A stretch of DNA of 64,000 nucleotides from an uncultured Pseudomonadales bacterium (lineage in GTDB: Bacteria; Pseudomonadota; Gammaproteobacteria; Pseudomonadales; UBA7434): positions 396,765 through 460,764 of the forward strand of contig CALSNL010000001.1 in assembly GCA_943787705.1 (NCBI GenBank), written 5' to 3'. The notes beneath the pieces were generated by a model. It searched no databases. It saw only the letters and a program-made list of their open reading frames with translations, and was not told the DNA's origin. Shown here piece by piece: positions 8,585 through 62,095 of this stretch. Within the stretch, counting starts at the first letter, position 1. Each line of letters opens with the position of its first letter. Both the position numbers and the translations under genes were made by a program.

Positions 8585-10261
<1,677 letters not shown>

Positions 10262-13937: not shown

Positions 13938-14492
13938 ATGAAAGCAAGCCATCTACCCAATAATACCTGTACTGATCAAGTCATTGAACTGGCCAGTCGC
14001 GCTGATTATATCGATGCAATGTCGCGCGTCGCTAATAGTGTTAATGTCGTAACCACCAATGGTGTAGGTGGCCAGATAGGTGTGACTGTAAGTGCAGCAA
14101 CATCGGTGTCGGCCGAGCCACCGACCTTATTGGTTTGTATACATGAATTAAGCAAAGCGATTCCAGCCATTCAAAAAAATGGCGGTTTTTGTCTGAACGT
14201 ACTGGATTCAACTCAGCAAAAATTCGCAGAAATTTTTGCGGGTATGAGCTCAGATATTCCCGATGATTTATTTAGCTCTGAGCATTGGGGGACATTGAAA
14301 TCGACTTGCCCAGCGCTTAAAGACGGGCTGGCTGTGTTTGACTGCAAAGTGAATGCAGTACATAAAGAAGGCACACATTTTATTTTTATTGGCCAAGTGC
14401 TTGCTGCTAAAAAAGGTAAGGGAGCACCTTTGGTCTATTCGCAACGTGCTTATGCCAAACCTGATTGGGGCAACGCTAAGCCTTCTGAGTAG
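13938..14492 (+). CDS. flavin reductase domain protein (HpaC/RutF-like NAD(P)H-flavin oxidoreductase)
   Basis: 184 aa. Segments MSRVANSVNVVTT...GVTVSAATSVSAEPPTLLVCI and FDCKV...GTHFIFIGQV fit the flavin_reduct fold pattern. Confidence 0.8.
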   Translation: MKASHLPNNTCTDQVIELASRADYIDAMSRVANSVNVVTTNGVGGQIGVTVSAATSVSAEPPTLLVCIHELSKAIPAIQKNGGFCLNVLDSTQQKFAEIFAGMSSDIPDDLFSSEHWGTLKSTCPALKDGLAVFDCKVNAVHKEGTHFIFIGQVLAAKKGKGAPLVYSQRAYAKPDWGNAKPSE

Positions 14493-15773: not shown

Positions 15774-17294
15774 CTAACCTTTACCCACGCTCGATTTGCA
15801 ATGACGATCAATAAACTCTTCATGAGTCGGCATAGCTTTAGTGGCTCGAACAAAAGATGACTTCACATCGGATAAAAAACCACCAACGGTGTCTTTATTA
15901 TGGCAATCGGCTAGTGGGTCGTATCCATTAGGCGTAATACCTTGCCCATGCAACACCGCTAACCAGCTATCCAATCTAAAGAGATTTTCTTCTTCAACAG
16001 ATATCCGTCCTCGATTCTTAAACAAAGCAATTTTATGCTTGAGGCTATCGGGCACATCCATCGTTCTACAATGCTTCCAAAAATCCTCTGTTCGTTCATT
16101 CAGATGATAGTGCAAAATAAGGAAATCACGAATGAGTTCATAATCCCTTGAATTGATATTGTTGAATTCATCTATTTCCGCTCGATTGAATTCTTTCCCT
16201 GGCATTGAGGTAATTAAGTGGGTAATCGATTTTTGAATAAGATGAATACTGGTTGATTCCAGTGGCTCCATAAATCCTGCAGATAGACCAATAGCAATAC
16301 AGTTTTTATTCCAGAATTTTTTTCTACGACCTGTAGTGAATTTTAATTGTCTTGGCTCACCTAACGCCTTCCCTTCGAGGTTAGCCAGCAATGTGCTTGC
16401 TGCCTCATCATCTGAAGTGTATTTGCTGCAATAAACGTGTCCATTACCCGTTCTATGTTGAAGCGGAATACGCCACTGCCAGCCAGCTTTATGAGCTGTA
16501 CACATAGTGTAGGGGCGGGGAGTGTCAATATTCTCAGACGGCACGGCAAGCGCTTTATCGCATAGCAAATAGTGAGACCAATCTTCATATCCAGTTTTGA
16601 GTGCTTCTTCAATGAGTAAGCCGCGAAAGCCTGAGCAATCGATAAACAAGTCGCCTGCAATAACTTTAGAAGATTCTAGTGTTACAGATTGAATAAAACC
16701 ATCTGGCTCACGCAAGGTCACATCAATAACTTTTCCTTCTACTCGTTTAACCCCTTTTTTCTCCGCATTTTTTCTTAAAAACTTGGCGTATAGTCCGGCA
16801 TCTAAGTGGTAAGCATAACCGGTTGTTGATAATACCGATTTAGGATCCGGACTTGTCGGTGCGAATTTTTTAGTCCTCGCCATTATTTCACACAATGAAT
16901 ATTCACCTAACTTGGCAGCTGTGCCGCGCTTGTTAGCGCGAAGCCAGTATTGGTGGAAAGGGGTAGCATCAAGTTTTCGTCCGTATTGTCCAAACGGGTG
17001 AAAGTAATGCTCGCCTTGCTTCTTCCAGTTATGAAACTCTATGCCAAGTTTAAATGTTGCCCCCGTTTCTTTTATAAACTCATCTTCTTTTATGCCGATT
17101 TCTCTATTAAACAGTTGCATCGGTGGAATAGTCGCTTCACCTACGCCTATGGTTCCAATTTGGTCAGATTCTATTAGTGTAATGTCGTAGGCATTGGCGG
17201 GGAGTAGTGCGCTCATTGCTGCGGCCGTCATCCACCCGGATGTACCTCCACCAACTATAACTATACGTCTAATTTTATTGTTATTCATGACCAT
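15774..17294 (-). CDS. flavin-dependent halogenase family protein (tryptophan-halogenase-like)
   Basis: FAD motif IVIVGGGTSGW, GVGEATIP, and the halogenase signature WxWxIP as GWQWRIPL. 506 aa. Confidence 0.88.
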   Translation of the reverse strand: MVMNNNKIRRIVIVGGGTSGWMTAAAMSALLPANAYDITLIESDQIGTIGVGEATIPPMQLFNREIGIKEDEFIKETGATFKLGIEFHNWKKQGEHYFHPFGQYGRKLDATPFHQYWLRANKRGTAAKLGEYSLCEIMARTKKFAPTSPDPKSVLSTTGYAYHLDAGLYAKFLRKNAEKKGVKRVEGKVIDVTLREPDGFIQSVTLESSKVIAGDLFIDCSGFRGLLIEEALKTGYEDWSHYLLCDKALAVPSENIDTPRPYTMCTAHKAGWQWRIPLQHRTGNGHVYCSKYTSDDEAASTLLANLEGKALGEPRQLKFTTGRRKKFWNKNCIAIGLSAGFMEPLESTSIHLIQKSITHLITSMPGKEFNRAEIDEFNNINSRDYELIRDFLILHYHLNERTEDFWKHCRTMDVPDSLKHKIALFKNRGRISVEEENLFRLDSWLAVLHGQGITPNGYDPLADCHNKDTVGGFLSDVKSSFVRATKAMPTHEEFIDRHCKSSVGKG

Positions 17295-55893: not shown

Positions 55894-55916
55894 AGGCATG
55901 CTTTATGCCTTTTTAT
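55894..55916 (+). terminator. rho-independent terminator
   Basis: aggcat gcttt atgcct followed by a T-run. Confidence 0.7.
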
Positions 55917-55938: not shown

Positions 55939-56862
55939 TCATATTTTTATAGGTGATAAAAGTTCGGTATCAGAGCCGTATTTTTTTACATACGCAGAGT
56001 TTAAACCGAGGCAATCTTCTGCTTTACACTGCTCACGATATTCACATTGATAAAAACCATTCTTAGAAAATTCATTCCAGAAATCATCATCAATGAAAAG
56101 CTGAGGCTGACCGTTGACAACCGTATGGCCATATTCTCCAAGCATGCAAACAGGAAAGTTTTTCACTTCTACTGTGCGTCCGTAACTAAAAGCTAGCTCA
56201 ATAGCTTCGCGTAAATAGGGAAGTATTTCAGCATGTGAAACCATTAAATCTTTTTTGTCATCTTCTTGCATGGGCCAATAAACCCAAAATTCCATTTGCA
56301 CTAACTGTTTTAAATGGCTGAGGCGTCTAACTAAGTCGGGTAACTGTCTATAGCTGTGTTGCGTGACAACTGTATTGGTAATAGAAATTGCATTTTCTAG
56401 GCTGTCAATATTCTCAAGACCTTTGACGGTTTTATCAAATGAACCACCAACAACCGTTATCATATCGTGAGTACTGGCATCAGAGCCGGCAACACTCACA
56501 AAGTATTCATCTACTCCCGCGGCATATAGAGTTTGACAATAGCTTTGTTGAGCTAAATGCATACCATGCGTCTGGATTCTAATATGCTCAAAACCTGAAG
56601 CTTTAGCTTTTCTTGCTAGCTCTGGAAGTTTTTTTGATAAAGTGATTTCAGAGCCGGTTAAGATTAAACCTCGCCATTGTTTGCGCTGCCGATTATAGGC
56701 CATGAGTTGGTCAAATTTTTCATCGGTTTCGGGCTTAAGTCGATCCATCGTGTCTTCTATCATGCAGTGCACACATTTTAGATTGCACCTAAACTCCATC
56801 GTCATAGAGACATACTGAGCATGATTAAATCGATCTTCATAGAGGCTTAATGTTTTATCCAT
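55939..56862 (-). CDS. radical SAM enzyme, unassigned subfamily
   Basis: CX3CX2C cluster FRCNLKCVHCM, a SAM-binding-like segment LILTGSEITL, and a C-terminal Cys cluster CEYREQCKAEDC (C-X5-C-X4-C). Confidence 0.85.
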   Translation of the reverse strand: MDKTLSLYEDRFNHAQYVSMTMEFRCNLKCVHCMIEDTMDRLKPETDEKFDQLMAYNRQRKQWRGLILTGSEITLSKKLPELARKAKASGFEHIRIQTHGMHLAQQSYCQTLYAAGVDEYFVSVAGSDASTHDMITVVGGSFDKTVKGLENIDSLENAISITNTVVTQHSYRQLPDLVRRLSHLKQLVQMEFWVYWPMQEDDKKDLMVSHAEILPYLREAIELAFSYGRTVEVKNFPVCMLGEYGHTVVNGQPQLFIDDDFWNEFSKNGFYQCEYREQCKAEDCLGLNSAYVKKYGSDTELLSPIKI

Positions 56863-56888
56863 TGAGGTAAGACCTATTTAACGGTGAG

Positions 56889-57752
56889 CTAAAAAAAACC
56901 ATAGTAAGCACTTTTAAGAATGTTGATATTTCCATCTTCCATGACATAGTCGATACCAACGTCATAGAGCATATGATCAAGTTGATCTCTGTTTTTTTCA
57001 GCATGCTCAATAATGGCTTTCGGATAATGACACTTTTTTAAAAACTGAATAAGTTGATCGATATTGATTCTAGAGAAATATATGCCATCATTATTTTTTT
57101 TGTTGGCGACTACAATCGTTTGGCAGTCTGTTAATTCTGGCCAAAGAAGCGATTTCAATGCTAGATGAGATAAATTGATATGAGCTGAGCAGGCAACTTT
57201 GCCAACAATATCATCCCAATGCTCTTGACGATCAAAAAAATAATAAAGGTTGCCGAGCTTGAGACCTTGATTATTAAGTGTATAACTTATACCTGAAGAG
57301 ACTGCATTACTTGGGTTGCCGATGTAAATATTGACTTCGTCGAGATTGCTAGCTTCATTAATCGTTTGTTCCGTGAGATCAATTGAAAACATGAAATACG
57401 GTTTATCATTATCAAAATGTAATGGGCAGCTGATCTCAGGTTTAATGATTTCAATGATACGTTCGAGCGATGCTTTTCGCTCCAATCGATTATAGTCATA
57501 AAAATACAATTCCCAGCTAATTTTGCCATTGGCAAATTTTACTCCCCAGACTGTCTGATTAGCTCCTAACTCTCGACGTATTTTATGGCAGAGACGAAGT
57601 GCTTTTTCGGAATTGGCATTCGATGTATTAAAAGATTGCTGCAAGAGATTGATAGAACGAATTTTCCCTTCAACATTACACAGCGGTGAGTACTCCCAAA
57701 GACAGAAATCTTTGAAGGTATCCTTGCTGTCACAATGTTCAAATGAGGGCAT
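56889..57752 (-). CDS. hypothetical protein (287 aa), co-operonic with the radical SAM gene
   Basis: Long ORF ending 26 nt upstream of the radical SAM start. I recognise no motif. It shows a repeated aromatic beta-strand-like pattern (WGVKFANGKISWELYFYDY, YFMFSIDL, NLYYFF, NILKSAYYGFF). Confidence 0.65.
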   Translation of the reverse strand: MPSFEHCDSKDTFKDFCLWEYSPLCNVEGKIRSINLLQQSFNTSNANSEKALRLCHKIRRELGANQTVWGVKFANGKISWELYFYDYNRLERKASLERIIEIIKPEISCPLHFDNDKPYFMFSIDLTEQTINEASNLDEVNIYIGNPSNAVSSGISYTLNNQGLKLGNLYYFFDRQEHWDDIVGKVACSAHINLSHLALKSLLWPELTDCQTIVVANKKNNDGIYFSRINIDQLIQFLKKCHYPKAIIEHAEKNRDQLDHMLYDVGIDYVMEDGNINILKSAYYGFF

Positions 57753-58012
57753 AAGCGGGCTGCGGTTTTTTATAATTAACGTTAGTTTTTATTTTGCAAT
57801 CTGGCTAAATCATAAAAGAATAATATCAGAATTGATGTGTTGTTGTGCATTCTATCGAGTAAAAGCTAAGTTAATTCGTTATAAAATATCAATATCACTT
57901 TATCTATTGCTGCTGGCTGATTAACATGTCAGCCTTTGTAGACATTATCTACTTTAGAATAATCAAAAAGTTAGGGCTGCAAAGTGAGCAATAGAGACAA
58001 AGGCGGAATATC

Positions 58013-58708
58013 TTGAGCATCTATCCAAATATTATTGCTATTTCTGGTTGCCCGGGTGGAGGTAAATCTTCATTGTGCCAAGCATTAGCTAGCCATTATT
58101 CCGTATCAGACGGCTTATCTTCGAGCCAGTTATTAACGGCTCCTGTGCCATTAGCTGAATCGGCATTAAGTATTATTCATTACGATCACTTTCAGCAGGT
58201 TACTGAGCAATCAATAGAGACACTTTCTAAATGGTCAGAAGAGGGGGGTGATTATGATGATTTAAAGCTCCCTTTACTTGAGCGTGCACTCAGTGAGATT
58301 AGTTCTGGTAGGGGGGTTGTAGACCCAGTGTCAGGGCTGGATATAAGTCCAACTAAGACTGTCTTTTTTGAAACGCCTTTAGGTCGAGATCATTCGAAGA
58401 CTGCGCAATATATCGATACGCTTATATGGATAGACACACCCCTAGATGTCGCATTAGCTAGAAATATAACAGATATTATTAGTCGTTTTGCTGAGTCTGT
58501 AAGGCTAAGCGATAGTAATAAAATACAGACGCTTGATTTTTTAGACTGGCAGAAAGGCTATGTTAGTCATTATTTATCGACTGTTCGTGAGCTACTAGTA
58601 TCACAAAGAGAAAAATCAATTGCGCAGGCTGATATTATCCTTGATGGTACCCAATCTATGGATAAAGTATTTGAGCAAGCTGTTGCTTTATTAGGTGAGT
58701 TTTCGTGA
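58013..58708 (+). CDS. P-loop NTPase, uridine-kinase/PRK-like nucleoside(tide) kinase fold
   Basis: Walker A AISGCPGGGKSS, with IIHYDHF and IWIDTPLDVALARN resembling the Udk/PRK layout. TTG start. Confidence 0.65.
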   Translation: MSIYPNIIAISGCPGGGKSSLCQALASHYSVSDGLSSSQLLTAPVPLAESALSIIHYDHFQQVTEQSIETLSKWSEEGGDYDDLKLPLLERALSEISSGRGVVDPVSGLDISPTKTVFFETPLGRDHSKTAQYIDTLIWIDTPLDVALARNITDIISRFAESVRLSDSNKIQTLDFLDWQKGYVSHYLSTVRELLVSQREKSIAQADIILDGTQSMDKVFEQAVALLGEFS

Positions 58709-59787
58709 CTAAAAGTAATGAGTTTTTACCTATAAATTCGAGCTATGACTATTTAATCGCGAATAGTTTCTTGCATGATTTTTCAATTACGCAGGCATTA
58801 TCTGCAGCGTTTAATATTCAACTTATTGATTTACTTTTAAGCCAGCAATCGCTAACAGTTAAAGAGCTAGTGTTTAAAACAAGTGCTGATACGCAGGGCA
58901 TGCAGTATCTATTGGGTATTTTAGTCGCAGGTAATATTGTTAGAAAAAATGGTAATAATGTTTCGTTATCTTTAGAGTTTAAACGCGCGCTGTCTTATCG
59001 CGACTTTATTGAAGCTCAGATAGCATTCGCTAATTTAGTTGCTGGCGATATAGTAAAGTTTTTTCCTTTACTGCTCGAAAGCAGTGAAAAATTTATGTCT
59101 GAAGCCGCCTTATTTGAACTGTTTGATTATAGCCGTGCTATAGAATTTTCTGAAGATAATTTGGCTTTTACGCGTCGTTGGATGCACTTCACAACAGCGC
59201 TAACGCGTTATGAAGGCAAGGTTTGCGGTAGCCATCATGACTTTAGTCACTACCAAACGATGATGGATATTGGTGGTAACAGCGGTGAGTTTGTTTTTCA
59301 GCTTTGTAGGCAGTTTCCTAACTTGCACGCTACCGTAGTTGACTTACCGTTGGTCTGTGATATTGGTCGCGGTCATGTCGATAAGCATCCTCAAGGCAAT
59401 CATCTAGCTGCAAGCACGCGGATTAATTTTTGTAAGGCCAACGCCTTGGTTGATACGTTGCCTGGTGGCTATGATTTAATTAGTTTTAAATCAATCCTAC
59501 ATGACTGGCCAGAACCAGCCGTACGCCAGTTTATTCGCAATTCGGTAAGCAGTTTGCGTCCTGGCGGAAAGTTACTTATTTTTGAGCGTGACCTAATAGA
59601 TCCGGCAGCTAATAACACAGCGTTCTTTTTACTACCGATGTTATTGTTCTTTCGATCTTTTAGGAATCCATGTCTTTATGAGCAGATTTTAAAAGAAGAA
59701 GGCTTTGTAGATATTCAAATTGATTATTTGCAGTTAGAAACACCATTTTTCCTATTAACTGCTGTTAAAGGAGATTCGCTTGAATAG
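58705..59787 (+). CDS. class I SAM-dependent O-methyltransferase (small-molecule OMT family 2 type)
   Basis: N-terminal winged-helix/dimerisation-like region, SAM motif I MMDIGGNSGEF, and later DLISFKSILHDW and GGKLLIFE. GTGA overlap with the upstream gene. Confidence 0.85.
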   Translation: MTKSNEFLPINSSYDYLIANSFLHDFSITQALSAAFNIQLIDLLLSQQSLTVKELVFKTSADTQGMQYLLGILVAGNIVRKNGNNVSLSLEFKRALSYRDFIEAQIAFANLVAGDIVKFFPLLLESSEKFMSEAALFELFDYSRAIEFSEDNLAFTRRWMHFTTALTRYEGKVCGSHHDFSHYQTMMDIGGNSGEFVFQLCRQFPNLHATVVDLPLVCDIGRGHVDKHPQGNHLAASTRINFCKANALVDTLPGGYDLISFKSILHDWPEPAVRQFIRNSVSSLRPGGKLLIFERDLIDPAANNTAFFLLPMLLFFRSFRNPCLYEQILKEEGFVDIQIDYLQLETPFFLLTAVKGDSLE

Positions 59788-60055
59788 CGCTCTAAGAGCG
59801 CAAAACAACTGTCTAGACGGTATCCCTGTTAGTACATAAGCATCTATTTAACATAATATACATTATGCGCATAGTTATGCATTACTTGTTAGAGGCCCAG
59901 CCTTCTATCTTTCATGTGAATCTCCTTATTAAAGTTAATTATCAGGCCAATAATTTCCTAATTAGCGCTATCTTGCTGCTCTCTGAGATTAAAAAAGGTA
60001 TTATCCGTAAGTTATTGAATTTTAAATAATCGACGCTATTCTTTAGCTATAGACT

Positions 60056-62095
60056 TTGATTGGCTTTGTGCCCTTTAGATCGTGTTATCCAATACTGAGA
60101 ACAGTAACATTGAAAGCTTTGACCAATAATTTATTTTCCGTTGCGAGCTACGGTCAGATTGCCGCTAAGATTTTGACTGTAAAGTTGCTAGCTGGCCTGT
60201 GCGTTTTCGCAGCTATGCTCGTGACGCTTGATGTTTACGCCCAAACTCAGGCTCAGATCAAAGCTACGCAACCTTCTGCTGATTCAGCCGATGTCCGTAT
60301 CAACATGAATAACGCTGAGATTCGCTCGGTTATTCAATGGGTCGCTGAAAAAACCAATAAAAACTTTATTATTGATCCTCGTGTTAAAGGCCGTATTTCG
60401 GTTCTGTCTAATCAACCCATGTCTATGGATCAAGCTTACCAAGTATTCTTAACGGCGCTCGATGTATACGGTTTTGCGGCTGTCGAGTCTGGTAACAACG
60501 TCAAAATAATACCTAACGCGCAAGCACGCTCTGCGGGCTTACCGATTGTTGAAACTTTTAATAACCCCGAAGCTGATAACTCAGAACTCGTGCTACATGT
60601 TATTAAAGTGAATAATATTTCTGCTAATGAGGTTGTCACCATATTGCGACCGTTAGTGCCTCAGACTGGTCATTTAGGCGCTTTTCCTAGCAGTAATAGC
60701 GTTATCATTGCCGATAGAGCCAATAATATTAATCGCCTATCTAAACTCGTTAGTTATATTGATAGCACGGGTGATCTTGATATTGAAGTTATTCAATTAA
60801 CGCATGCAACTGCTGATGATGTTGTCAGTGTGCTTCAGCCACTATTAAAAACCGGCAAAGCGGCCTCTGATGTTACTGGCATTAACTTTGCCACCGACGC
60901 TCGCTCTAACAGTATTTTAATGACGGGTAATGAAGATAAGCGCGCCCTCGTTCGTGATTTGATTGACAGTCTTGATAGACCCTTGCAAGGTACCGGCAAT
61001 ACCAAAGTCGTTTTTCTAAATTATATAGATGCTGATGAGATTAAGCCTATTCTTGATGGCATGACGGGCTCGATAAGCAAAGATGAAAAAAATGTTTCTT
61101 TAGTGGATGCGGATATTAATATCCAATCATCAGAAACCAATAATGCATTAATTATTACCGCGCCTCCTTCTATACTTGAATCGATAGAAACCGTTATTAC
61201 TGAGCTCGACGTTAAGCGCTCTCAAGTTATGATTGAGGCGATTATCGTTGAGGTTACCGATAGCTTTTCTAATACACTGGAGATTCTTTGGGGTACTTCA
61301 CCAACACTTAGCGGCGGCGTTAGCAGTGCTAATCTATTGGGCTCAACGACATCGACACTTGCTGTTAGTGATAATCCAGGTGCTGCATTGGTTCAGTCTG
61401 GTTTGAACTGGGGTTTCTTTAGAAACGGAAGCTTACGCTCCCTACTCCACGCCGTAGCCAGTGATAACAACAATAATGTGTTATCTACGCCGTCTATTAT
61501 TACGATTGATAACGAAGAAGCTGAAATACTTGTGGGAAGTAACGTGCCTTTTGTTACTGGCAGTCAAACATCAGCCGCAACATCAACGAACAATCCGTTT
61601 AGAACAATTCAGCGCGAAGATATTGGTATTACCCTTAAAATAACGCCTAAAGTGAGCAAGCAAAGAACTATTACACTGGCAGTTGAGCAAGAGGTTGAAT
61701 CCGTTCGTGAAGAGCAAATATCTGCGGCGCAAGATTTAATTACCGATAAGCGTAGCATTAAAACGAATGTGCTCGTTGATGATGGCACTATTTTAGTCCT
61801 CGGTGGATTAATTGAAGATCGCACAACGAGAAACCAGACAAAAGTACCTTTACTAGGTGACATTCCATTGCTCGGTCGATTTTTTAGCAGTGATACGAAA
61901 ACGACGAGAAAGCAAAACTTAATGGTTTTTATTAAAACAACTATTATTGATGACTTAAGTCTTGCTGAGAAGAAAACGCGCGAAAGTTATAACGATATAC
62001 GCGACAAACAAAAAGGTTTAGGTGATCGCAAAGAGAAGCTAACACTGCCTGATTTTGAATCTCAAAAGCCAGCTGATAAAGCTGCCGTCAATTAA
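60056..62095 (+). CDS. gspD: GspD-type secretin (type II secretion outer-membrane channel), orphan
   Basis: N0/N1-N3 domain pattern (INMNNAEIRSVIQWVAEKTNKNFIIDPRVKGRISV...) and a secretin core (VLSTPSIITIDNEEAEILVGSNVPF, VPLLGDIPLLGRFF). There is no in-frame ATG before the signal peptide. Candidate TTG starts are 60056, 60110 and 60173. Confidence 0.88.
   Translation: MIGFVPFRSCYPILRTVTLKALTNNLFSVASYGQIAAKILTVKLLAGLCVFAAMLVTLDVYAQTQAQIKATQPSADSADVRINMNNAEIRSVIQWVAEKTNKNFIIDPRVKGRISVLSNQPMSMDQAYQVFLTALDVYGFAAVESGNNVKIIPNAQARSAGLPIVETFNNPEADNSELVLHVIKVNNISANEVVTILRPLVPQTGHLGAFPSSNSVIIADRANNINRLSKLVSYIDSTGDLDIEVIQLTHATADDVVSVLQPLLKTGKAASDVTGINFATDARSNSILMTGNEDKRALVRDLIDSLDRPLQGTGNTKVVFLNYIDADEIKPILDGMTGSISKDEKNVSLVDADINIQSSETNNALIITAPPSILESIETVITELDVKRSQVMIEAIIVEVTDSFSNTLEILWGTSPTLSGGVSSANLLGSTTSTLAVSDNPGAALVQSGLNWGFFRNGSLRSLLHAVASDNNNNVLSTPSIITIDNEEAEILVGSNVPFVTGSQTSAATSTNNPFRTIQREDIGITLKITPKVSKQRTITLAVEQEVESVREEQISAAQDLITDKRSIKTNVLVDDGTILVLGGLIEDRTTRNQTKVPLLGDIPLLGRFFSSDTKTTRKQNLMVFIKTTIIDDLSLAEKKTRESYNDIRDKQKGLGDRKEKLTLPDFESQKPADKAAVN

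Follow-up and report, generated by a model that had tools for sequence, protein, structure and literature searches.

The aromatic prenyltransferases of the prenyltransferase-barrel (PT-barrel) or alpha-beta-beta-alpha (ABBA) fold, such as NphB/Orf2, CloQ, EpzP, FamD1, AmbP1/P3, TleC, CymD, CdpNPT and the cyanobactin peptide prenyltransferases, are proteins of about 290 amino acids (aa) with ten antiparallel strands. ABBA enzymes including NphB, CloQ and DMATS use Lys, Arg, Tyr and Asp residues for diphosphate and Mg2+ binding. The radical S-adenosylmethionine (SAM) enzymes of the twitch/SPASM type (BlsE, MoaA, SkfB, HxsC and Tes/GDGT-MAS) combine a CX3CX2C motif and a partial TIM-barrel with an extra C-terminal Cys site. 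Here we analyzed 64,000 nucleotides of contig CALSNL010000001.1 from an uncultured Pseudomonadales bacterium (assembly GCA_943787705.1, positions 396,765 to 460,764; this whole stretch is called the window below), in which a gene for a 287-aa protein of predicted PT-barrel fold and a radical SAM gene diverge from genes for a P-loop nucleoside/nucleoside monophosphate (NMP)-kinase-like protein and a family-2 (COMT-type) O-methyltransferase (OMT). The barrel and radical SAM genes form an invariant pair that elsewhere accompanies giant exoproteins. Our tentative reading is that the module tailors such a giant, or another ribosomal substrate, in the manner of the enzymes that act on peptides made by the ribosome and modified after translation (RiPPs). 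The barrel clade, its coupling to a radical SAM enzyme and its link to giant exoproteins all appear to be undescribed.

The original prediction, made by a model from the sequence alone, regarded the 287-aa protein as an orphan and as an unknown scaffold. Neither description survived the searches. Although no Pfam or NCBIfam model matches it, an indexed search returned 815 homologs, all unnamed, and when 1.84 billion cluster representatives were searched exhaustively with a profile, 578 matched at E <= 1e-3, of which 211 reached E <= 1e-30. Identity stays near 50% across Alpha-, Beta- and Gammaproteobacteria, Desulfobacterota and Chitinivibrionales. A scan of about 185,600 species genomes, one per species, found the family in 258 and added Cyanobacteria, Rokubacteria and Acidobacteria to its carriers. 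The family is compact and strongly conserved, and it is enzyme-like in character: 47 columns are invariant among 38 aligned members, and most of them hold polar or ionizable residues. The conserved polar positions are K72, E81, Y83, Y85, Y119, S123, Y143, Y157, N168 and Y170, followed by K218, Y225, D264, D268, K280 and Y284. K72, K218, K280, R89, R92 and many of the Tyr residues are invariant and alternate along the predicted barrel strands, which is consistent with a lumen lined by the conserved polar side chains if strand periodicity gives their orientation.

The AlphaFold (AF2) model of the protein, with a predicted local distance difference test score (pLDDT) of 92.8 and a predicted template modeling score (pTM) of 0.91, has ten strands in five hairpins with helices between them, the ten-stranded antiparallel barrel of five alpha-beta-beta-alpha repeats that defines the fold. 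Its top 37 Foldseek matches in the PDB were all ABBA/PT-barrel aromatic prenyltransferases, including FamD1, AmbP1/P3, NphB, TleC, EpzP, CloQ, CymD and CdpNPT; beyond them the match probability fell below 0.1. The best-scoring matches were indole prenyltransferases. ABBA enzymes are thus its only structural neighbors in the PDB, and conserved Tyr, Lys, Arg and Asp residues are plentiful on the strands of both. The match is specific but loose, with template modeling (TM) scores of 0.38-0.52, a root-mean-square deviation (rmsd) of about 7 A and 7-13% identity. Unlike the structural resemblance, a sequence relationship was not found: PF11468 (PTase_Orf2) and PF11991 (Trp_DMAT) matched 0 of the 38 members even at E <= 10, and the barrel profile found no ABBA chain among the PDB sequences. 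Because the fold match is loose and the sequence link to known ABBA families is missing, we call the protein PT-barrel-fold and regard it as no more than a candidate prenyltransferase. The suggestion in the original prediction of a resemblance to PT-barrels therefore holds at the level of the fold. The family represents an unannotated clade, a sequence orphan, of a fold otherwise known only from aromatic prenyltransferases.

The partner of the barrel is a radical SAM enzyme by its match to PF04055 (62.7 bits, cutoff 29.5) and by the radical SAM folds that head its Foldseek list. Its CNLKCVHC (CX3CX2C) motif provides C26, C30 and C33, which are invariant in 26 homologs, as are four further residues, C239, C273, C279 and C284 (C-x33-C-x5-C-x4-C). 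The C-X5-C-X4-C site that had been proposed to hold an auxiliary cluster is therefore real and includes a fourth conserved Cys. Since there are four extra Cys residues, they fit a single twitch-like auxiliary [4Fe-4S] cluster, which we predict here, and not the seven-Cys SPASM arrangement. More than 100 columns are invariant in the alignment of the 26 homologs, and identity across phyla is 57-67%, so that the enzyme is better conserved than the barrel; a second subtype, at ~35% identity, occurs in Desulfobacterota. In one species, Devosia aurantiaca (L009 / L017), the gene is split into open reading frames (ORFs) of 189 and 111 aa (8871-9440 and 9437-9772), which may reflect a frameshift, a pseudogene or a sequencing error. 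No NCBIfam equivalog reached its cutoff (HxsC4 91.9 of 500 bits, MoaA 62 of 284, BlsE 57 of 400), and Tes, AhbD, NirJ and PqqE also stayed below theirs. In a Foldseek search the AF2 model (pLDDT 88.1) came about equally close to BlsE, GDGT-MAS, SkfB, MoaA and viperin (TM 0.5-0.58) and matched none of them specifically. In contrast to the twitch/SPASM families, then, the enzyme scores below all curated cutoffs, spaces its Cys residues as C-x33-C-x5-C-x4-C and is partnered by a PT-barrel protein instead of a PqqD-type RiPP recognition element (RRE). It represents a new radical SAM subfamily with a predicted auxiliary cluster, tied to the barrel by adjacency and by fusions.

The low-scoring resemblances of this enzyme could be read in two other ways. 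In the first, the module would be a viperin-like (pVip plus kinase) anti-phage system that modifies nucleotides, as the PADLOC pVip matches (33.5 and 26.4 bits), the viperins among the Foldseek matches and the nucleoside-kinase-like gene might suggest. However, the pVip matches span only the generic radical SAM core and are outscored by those to HxsC4 (92 bits) and MoaA (62 bits), and viperins lack the four-Cys auxiliary site. The kinase gene is also missing from half of the loci, whereas the barrel never is, and the neighbors are export and giant-protein genes and not defense islands. We rejected viperin-type defense, which is very improbable given a best match of 33.5 bits over the generic core and the presence of the four-Cys site. 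In the second, the genes would be a housekeeping RNA-modification or MoaA-like cofactor set with unrelated neighbors, in line with the sub-threshold NCBIfam similarity to MoaA, AhbD and NirJ and with the housekeeping genes that flank the module in the window. Those three matches all lie far below the curated cutoffs, however, the flanking genes are wholly different in other taxa, and a barrel family present in so few species genomes is incompatible with a core function. The sub-cutoff scores and the rare distribution make this second reading just as hard to credit, and it was ruled out.

The barrel and radical SAM genes occur together throughout. Of 84 loci, 82 have the radical SAM gene next to the barrel gene; the other two run to the contig edge. 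These and the following presence counts rest on tblastn because ORF calling in the fetched loci was crude; the ORF clusters c9, c10 and c14 are antisense artefacts of GC-rich loci. Among the loci with flanks of 8 kb or more on each side (well-flanked, n=48), in which at most 10 kb of flank was examined, the pair is present in 48/48. The OMT gene is nearby in 33 and the P-loop gene in 23; both, and with them all four module genes, are found in 23. The OMT and P-loop genes are therefore facultative, and the barrel-radical SAM pair is the invariant core. The original prediction had described a four-gene cassette that should recur outside this genome. The genes do travel together in other genomes, but as an obligatory pair with two optional companions and not as a fixed unit of four. 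The divergent layout (OMT and P-loop genes on one side, barrel and radical SAM genes on the other) is seen again in relatives with 61-62% and with 75% identity. Carriers of the module include the culturable Neptuniibacter, Aminobacter, Mesorhizobium, Methylobacterium, Maricurvus and Anabaena. In the searchable literature we found no description of the barrel-radical SAM pair, nor any report of an ABBA enzyme obligately paired with or fused to a radical SAM enzyme.

Natural fusions also connect the two proteins. The radical SAM enzyme is fused to the barrel in P0295 (600 aa), P0358, P0317 and P0339, the last with two radical SAM domains. Together with the adjacency, these fusions are strong evidence that the two proteins form one unit acting on one substrate. 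The barrel is also fused to a PhyH-like 2-oxoglutarate (2OG)-dependent dioxygenase (P0425) and to a fifth family, M268 (P0294, P0298, P0299 and P0307). M268 proteins have ~257-290 aa with 21 invariant residues (alignment A2) and match no Pfam or NCBIfam model. Their gene lies directly upstream of the barrel gene in 39 of the 48 well-flanked loci (for example L007 7137-7943 and L064 9069-9920) and is absent from the window, so M268 is a third uncharacterized core component that the window lacks. In Mesorhizobium and Devosia, M268 is itself joined to the P-loop protein, and in Desulfobacterota to DUF3467; fusions with the P-loop protein are present in L021, L022, L036, L044 and L051. Two candidate relationships of M268 were rejected. 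Its C-terminus ("...YYGV") recalls that of the barrel ("...YYGFF"), and the profile-profile probability that they are paralogs was 0.7%. Single-linkage clustering had merged it with the P-loop family, and BLASTP found no similarity; the two are linked only through the fusion proteins.

These fusions bear on whether the barrel is an enzyme at all. It could instead be a non-catalytic partner that binds and presents the substrate, as an RRE/PqqD domain or PlpY does, and leaves all of the chemistry to the radical SAM enzyme. Recognition domains are typically joined to varied enzymes, and the barrel has three different kinds of redox or radical enzyme as fusion partners (radical SAM, M268 and the PhyH-like dioxygenase); it also has no sequence similarity to the catalytic ABBA families and matches them loosely in structure. 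Nevertheless, 47 invariant columns, mostly polar or ionizable and alternating on the strands, exceed what a binding module usually needs, and by analogy the invariant set includes the Lys, Arg, Tyr and Asp types that ABBA enzymes use. We therefore regard a non-catalytic barrel as improbable.

The gene neighborhoods elsewhere point to a substrate. To our knowledge, the LEPR-XLL/repeats-in-toxin (RTX) giant exoproteins are the largest bacterial proteins known, and their maturation and export are almost wholly undescribed; the module offers an entry point into them. The pair lies within the loci of these giants or beside their export genes in 47 of the 48 well-flanked loci, unlike the ABBA enzymes of natural-product clusters. 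This association suggests that the module either tailors the giants or produces something that they require. In 37 loci an ORF of 1,500 aa or more lies within 10 kb of the pair, usually extending beyond the end of the fetched DNA, and 10 of the remaining 11 contain SecA-like, M50-HlyD and DUF3467 genes. The module abuts ORFs of 9,996 aa in Methylococcus, 1,744 and 2,577 aa in Devosia, and 17,800 aa in a Thermodesulfobacteriota metagenome-assembled genome. The giants are RTX proteins with a LEPR-XLL N-terminal domain, of 9,328 to 17,800 aa. Their N-termini are alike: 36 of 38 fall in one cluster, and a LEPRxLL-type motif is present in 35/35 of those whose N-terminus lies in the locus. Many open with MAFPF or MAYPF, and LEPRLLLSAD comes after an intervening basic stretch (L018 from 12765, L015 from 12846, L088 from 14740). 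M268 is present in all 24 loci with a MAFPF/MAYPF N-terminus, and five betaproteobacterial loci that lack both M268 and the MAFPF motif have a PF13759 oxygenase instead, two associations that phylogeny confounds. One database protein, P0375 (3,798 aa), joins a LEPR-XLL giant N-terminus in mid-domain to barrel residues 114-290; it is probably an assembly or gene-calling chimera and not a true fusion.

Recurrent accessory genes in these loci encode SapC, a TolC-family protein, DUF3467 and a truncated SecA-like ATPase of ~660 aa. A PqqD-like + M50 + HlyD fusion protein also recurs, and its best NCBIfam match, below cutoff, is the daptide HExxH protease. Together, the genes for the SecA-like, HlyD-like and PqqD + M50 + HlyD proteins, a ~713-aa unannotated protein and DUF3467 look like an undescribed export apparatus (Table 1). 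No ABC transporter emerged from conserved-neighbor clustering, in which no search was aimed at ABC transporters, and we found no paper that mentions both DUF3467 and SecA. HlyC-type acyltransferases modify HlyA-type RTX toxins and are encoded beside toxin and exporter. By analogy, and as the gene context suggests, the module loci may likewise place modifying-enzyme genes beside an RTX substrate and its exporter. The enzyme families differ entirely from those of the HlyC system, however, and in many loci a SecA-like ATPase and M50-HlyD are among the export genes. The loci also share SapC (35 of 48), Trp-halogenase-family and PF13759 oxygenase genes, the latter two sometimes adjoining the module, with the SapC/Trp-halogenase/2OG-oxygenase neighborhoods described previously (PMC2938197). 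Their giants belong to the same class as the LEPRxLL proteins of the Chlorochromatium symbiosis, which reach 20,647 and 36,806 aa and have SapC and TolC neighbors (bioRxiv 10.64898/2026.03.19.712371). Neither the papers on SapC neighborhoods and LEPRxLL giants nor the wider searchable literature mention the barrel, its radical SAM partner or M268.

The conserved neighborhood contains tailoring-type enzymes only and no scaffold synthase, next to a ribosomal product whose N-terminus is leader-like and a protease/exporter with a PqqD-like domain, and this combination favors a RiPP-like role. In RiPP systems, such as those with a daptide HExxH membrane protease, tailoring enzymes likewise occur without a scaffold synthase, and the module loci resemble them in the PqqD-like + M50 + HlyD neighbor and the leader-like N-terminus. 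They differ in that the candidate substrate is ~9,000 to 17,800 aa long and not a short peptide. The original prediction had envisaged a compact natural-product or RiPP-like tailoring locus. The wider giant and export context found elsewhere suggests the tailoring of a ribosomal substrate at least as strongly as a self-contained small-molecule cluster. We found no candidate RiPP precursor in the window; elsewhere there is the adjacent giant with its MAFPF...LEPRxLL N-terminus. Thus, RiPP-like tailoring of a giant exoprotein or another ribosomal substrate is the reading that we put forward, tentatively, since it is possible but somewhat short of probable.

If this tailoring takes place, the predicted Tyr/Lys/Asp-lined lumen of the barrel would hold both an aromatic side chain or group and a diphosphate-activated alkyl donor of the prenyl type, and the barrel would alkylate the bound aromatic group. 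Radical chemistry by the radical SAM enzyme would follow on that substrate, for example to form a C-C or C-X cross-link or to modify a carbon that is not activated. In modules that include them, the OMT would cap a hydroxyl, and the role of the kinase would be either to phosphorylate a hydroxyl or to help to supply the donor. A more specific version is that the barrel and the radical SAM enzyme are a new bifunctional enzyme class that modifies the leader-like N-terminus of LEPR-XLL giants, for example by prenyl-type alkylation followed by radical cross-linking, and does so in trans in lineages such as the present one. This version is unlikely, and rather more conjectural than the broader one. 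If true, it would extend RiPP-style maturation to proteins of ~9,000 to 17,800 aa, in a class that also holds the 20,000-37,000-aa Chlorochromatium symbiosis proteins.

The window itself is an exception to the giant context. In relatives at 61-62% identity, the divergent module is followed by HlyD-like, SecA-like and GAF/HlyD genes and a 9,328-aa ORF. In the window and in the 75%-identity relative, the radical SAM gene is followed by a major facilitator superfamily (MFS) gene, aroC and prmB instead. Searches of the window by tblastn with SapC, TolC-like, SecA-like, M50-HlyD, DUF3467 and giant queries found nothing, nor did a six-frame scan for the LEPRxLL and MAFPF motifs. Metagenomic contigs that extend a further ~6 kb beyond the window show none of these either, and the region from -56 kb to +10 kb around the module is free of giant genes. 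All four genes are nevertheless under purifying selection and are not chance ORFs. Compared with a relative at 94% identity, the ratio of nonsynonymous to synonymous substitution rates (dN/dS) is 0.05 for the radical SAM gene, 0.09 for the barrel, 0.14 for the P-loop gene and 0.08 for the OMT gene, next to 0.02 for aroC and 0.07 for the MFS gene in the flanks; the value for gspD was disregarded as an alignment artefact. Since the module is maintained by selection with no linked giant, it would have to act in trans on an unlinked substrate in this genome. A recent horizontal transfer was ruled out: GC content at third codon positions (GC3) is 0.29-0.34 in the four module genes, close to the 0.36-0.39 of their neighbors, and this argues against a fresh insertion.

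The two facultative enzymes are of familiar types. As had been predicted, the OMT belongs to the family-2 (COMT-type) O-methyltransferases, matching PF00891 (69.1 bits, cutoff 22.3) and the dimerization domain PF08100 (31.8 bits, cutoff 25.6), and like MmcR, DnrK and ASMT it carries the SAM motif (DIGG) and the catalytic-His motif (LHDW). Its nearest solved relatives are the small-molecule phenol and hydroxyindole methyltransferases MmcR, AlpH, DnrK, ASMT and SibL, and all 72 of its PDB relatives are O-, C- or S-methyltransferases of small molecules. With the best NCBIfam equivalog, BchU (cutoff 276), it reaches only 43.7 bits. The P-loop protein had been described as having a uridine-kinase/PRK-like layout. 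A kinase-like layout is indeed present, since the family keeps Walker A, LGR and a nucleoside-kinase-like W-x-D-x-P-x-D-[IV]-A-L-A-R motif, but membership in the uridine kinases or PRK is not supported by the scores, all below cutoff (PF00485 17.5 of 22 bits, udk TIGR00235 21.8 of 220, NF006085 88.6 of 198). The family is small, with 53 indexed homologs, and some sources give it the automatic name "uridine kinase". An insert of ~20 aa after the Walker A helix (residues ~31-52) is shared only by the closest relative, L011, and is missing from most aligned homologs. The P-loop protein also evolves faster, at 83.5% identity to the closest relative compared with 94-95% for the other three. Pfam, NCBIfam and Foldseek gave none of the four proteins a confident assignment to a characterized function, an outcome that would have counted against the original prediction had it been otherwise.

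These two enzymes lead to the main alternative, a self-contained small-molecule pathway. Here the barrel would prenylate a free aromatic metabolite (an indole, phenol or hydroxybenzoate), the radical SAM enzyme would rearrange or cyclize it, the OMT would methylate a phenolic OH and the kinase would phosphorylate the product or a precursor. The resulting meroterpenoid-like compound would serve beside the giants, as a signal, envelope lipid or anchor, without being attached to them. The solved relatives of the OMT (MmcR, DnrK, ASMT and SibL) all methylate small molecules, the P-loop protein is nucleoside-kinase-like, and the characterized structural neighbors of the barrel all prenylate aromatic substrates, which are mostly small molecules. 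Moreover, the relatives of the radical SAM enzyme include BlsE, MoaA and the isoprenoid-lipid enzymes Tes/GDGT-MAS, the OMT and kinase are optional, like decoration steps, and in the window the module is kept under selection with no giant within reach. Iyer et al. 2010 also interpret the related SapC/Trp-halogenase/2OG-oxygenase neighborhoods as metabolite synthesis (PMC2938197). However, the conserved companions of the pair include neither an enzyme that would form a scaffold or supply a precursor nor a transporter dedicated to small molecules, and the PqqD-like domain on the neighboring protease/exporter suggests peptide recognition. A free metabolite would also leave unexplained a giant context that is nearly universal, across at least six phyla or classes and with any type of exporter. 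We consider a small-molecule product not very likely, though it deserves more weight than the other alternatives; if the product is a metabolite, a new aromatic scaffold, prenylated or methylated, would be reached by the module in a compact way.

Much of the same evidence weighs against RiPP-like tailoring of a ribosomal substrate, the reading that we tentatively retain. The link between the module and the giants is one of guilt by association, drawn from gene neighborhoods. No giant ORF, exporter homolog or LEPRxLL/MAFPF ORF is present in the 64-kb window, and the module is clearly a detachable unit that persists under selection without a linked giant. Known ABBA enzymes act mostly on small aromatic substrates, and the families of the OMT and the P-loop protein are of a kind that typically acts on small molecules. 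For the barrel itself, the fold match is loose, the ABBA family models PF11468 and PF11991 find none of its members, and the lumen orientation comes from strand periodicity and not from the coordinates of the model.

The arrangement of the module is given in Table 1. All four ORFs lie, to the base, where the original prediction had placed them, and the spacing that it described is likewise exact: 26 nt separate the barrel gene from the radical SAM gene, the GTG start of the OMT gene overlaps the stop codon of the P-loop gene (GTGA), and the two arms diverge from an AT-rich region with 32.3% GC, compared with 41.1% for the whole window. The hairpin at the far end of the minus arm is probably a bidirectional terminator that closes it.

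Table 1 Features of the module in the window and giant-adjacent gene sets in other loci
Feature	Position	Strand	Details
Radical SAM enzyme	55939-56862	-	307 aa, ATG start
287-aa PT-barrel (ABBA-fold) protein	56889-57752	-	ATG start; unannotated family
P-loop nucleoside/NMP-kinase-like protein	58013-58708	+	231 aa, TTG start
Family-2 (COMT-type) SAM-dependent OMT	58705-59787	+	360 aa, GTG start
Divergent promoter region	57753-58012	.	260 bp, 32.3% GC
GC-rich hairpin with A- and T-run flanks	55894-55910	+	between the convergent MFS (+) and radical SAM (-) genes
Giant-adjacent candidate export gene set	L010 8876-16198; L091 5580-12339; L092 11949-16289		

Three blocks of the divergent spacer (57815-57834, 57862-57909 and 57917-57928) are conserved to relatives at 75% protein identity, in an alignment of the window with L011 and L094. 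They sit between two promoter-like -35 elements. Promoter-like hexamers occur on both strands (57849->57820 on the minus strand and 57921-57948 on the plus strand), in numbers not above those of shuffled sequence. An Rfam search found no riboswitch and no other known RNA. The main block can also be read as an ORF of 26-30 aa (57832-57924, +) with an identical stop codon in all three lineages. Its substitutions, read by eye from the alignment, number 3, 1 and 4 at codon positions 1, 2 and 3. Since the DNA is conserved with no clear codon-position pattern, an operator is more likely than a peptide.

Downstream of the OMT gene, a 54-aa ORF (59865-60029, +) precedes gspD and is called by gene finders on metagenomic contigs. 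We rejected it as a real gene because it is not conserved in the 94%-identical relative, and it is probably spurious. A GspD secretin (TIGR02517, 524 bits) is encoded directly downstream of the OMT gene at 60056-62095 (+), and no other type II secretion system genes were found in the 64-kb window. At the corresponding position, the 75%-identity relative (L094) has an unidentified partial ORF. The lone secretin beside the module may be a coincidence or a relic.

About 40 kb from the module, the window encodes a tryptophan-halogenase-family protein (15774-17294, -; PF04820, 652 bits) near a flavin reductase (13938-14492, +). The same halogenase family, at about 40% identity, adjoins the module in ~7 distant loci (L033, L034, L047, L053, L072, L073 and L086), and a functional link between the window halogenase and the module is possible. 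Further away, the segment 22639-30228 resembles a cluster for the uptake of beta-glucan (laminarin-type): it encodes a GH16 glycoside hydrolase, a TonB-dependent receptor and an MFS transporter and includes two unannotated ORFs. In combination with the pst/phoU and Entner-Doudoroff genes, this cluster fits a marine heterotrophic gammaproteobacterium.

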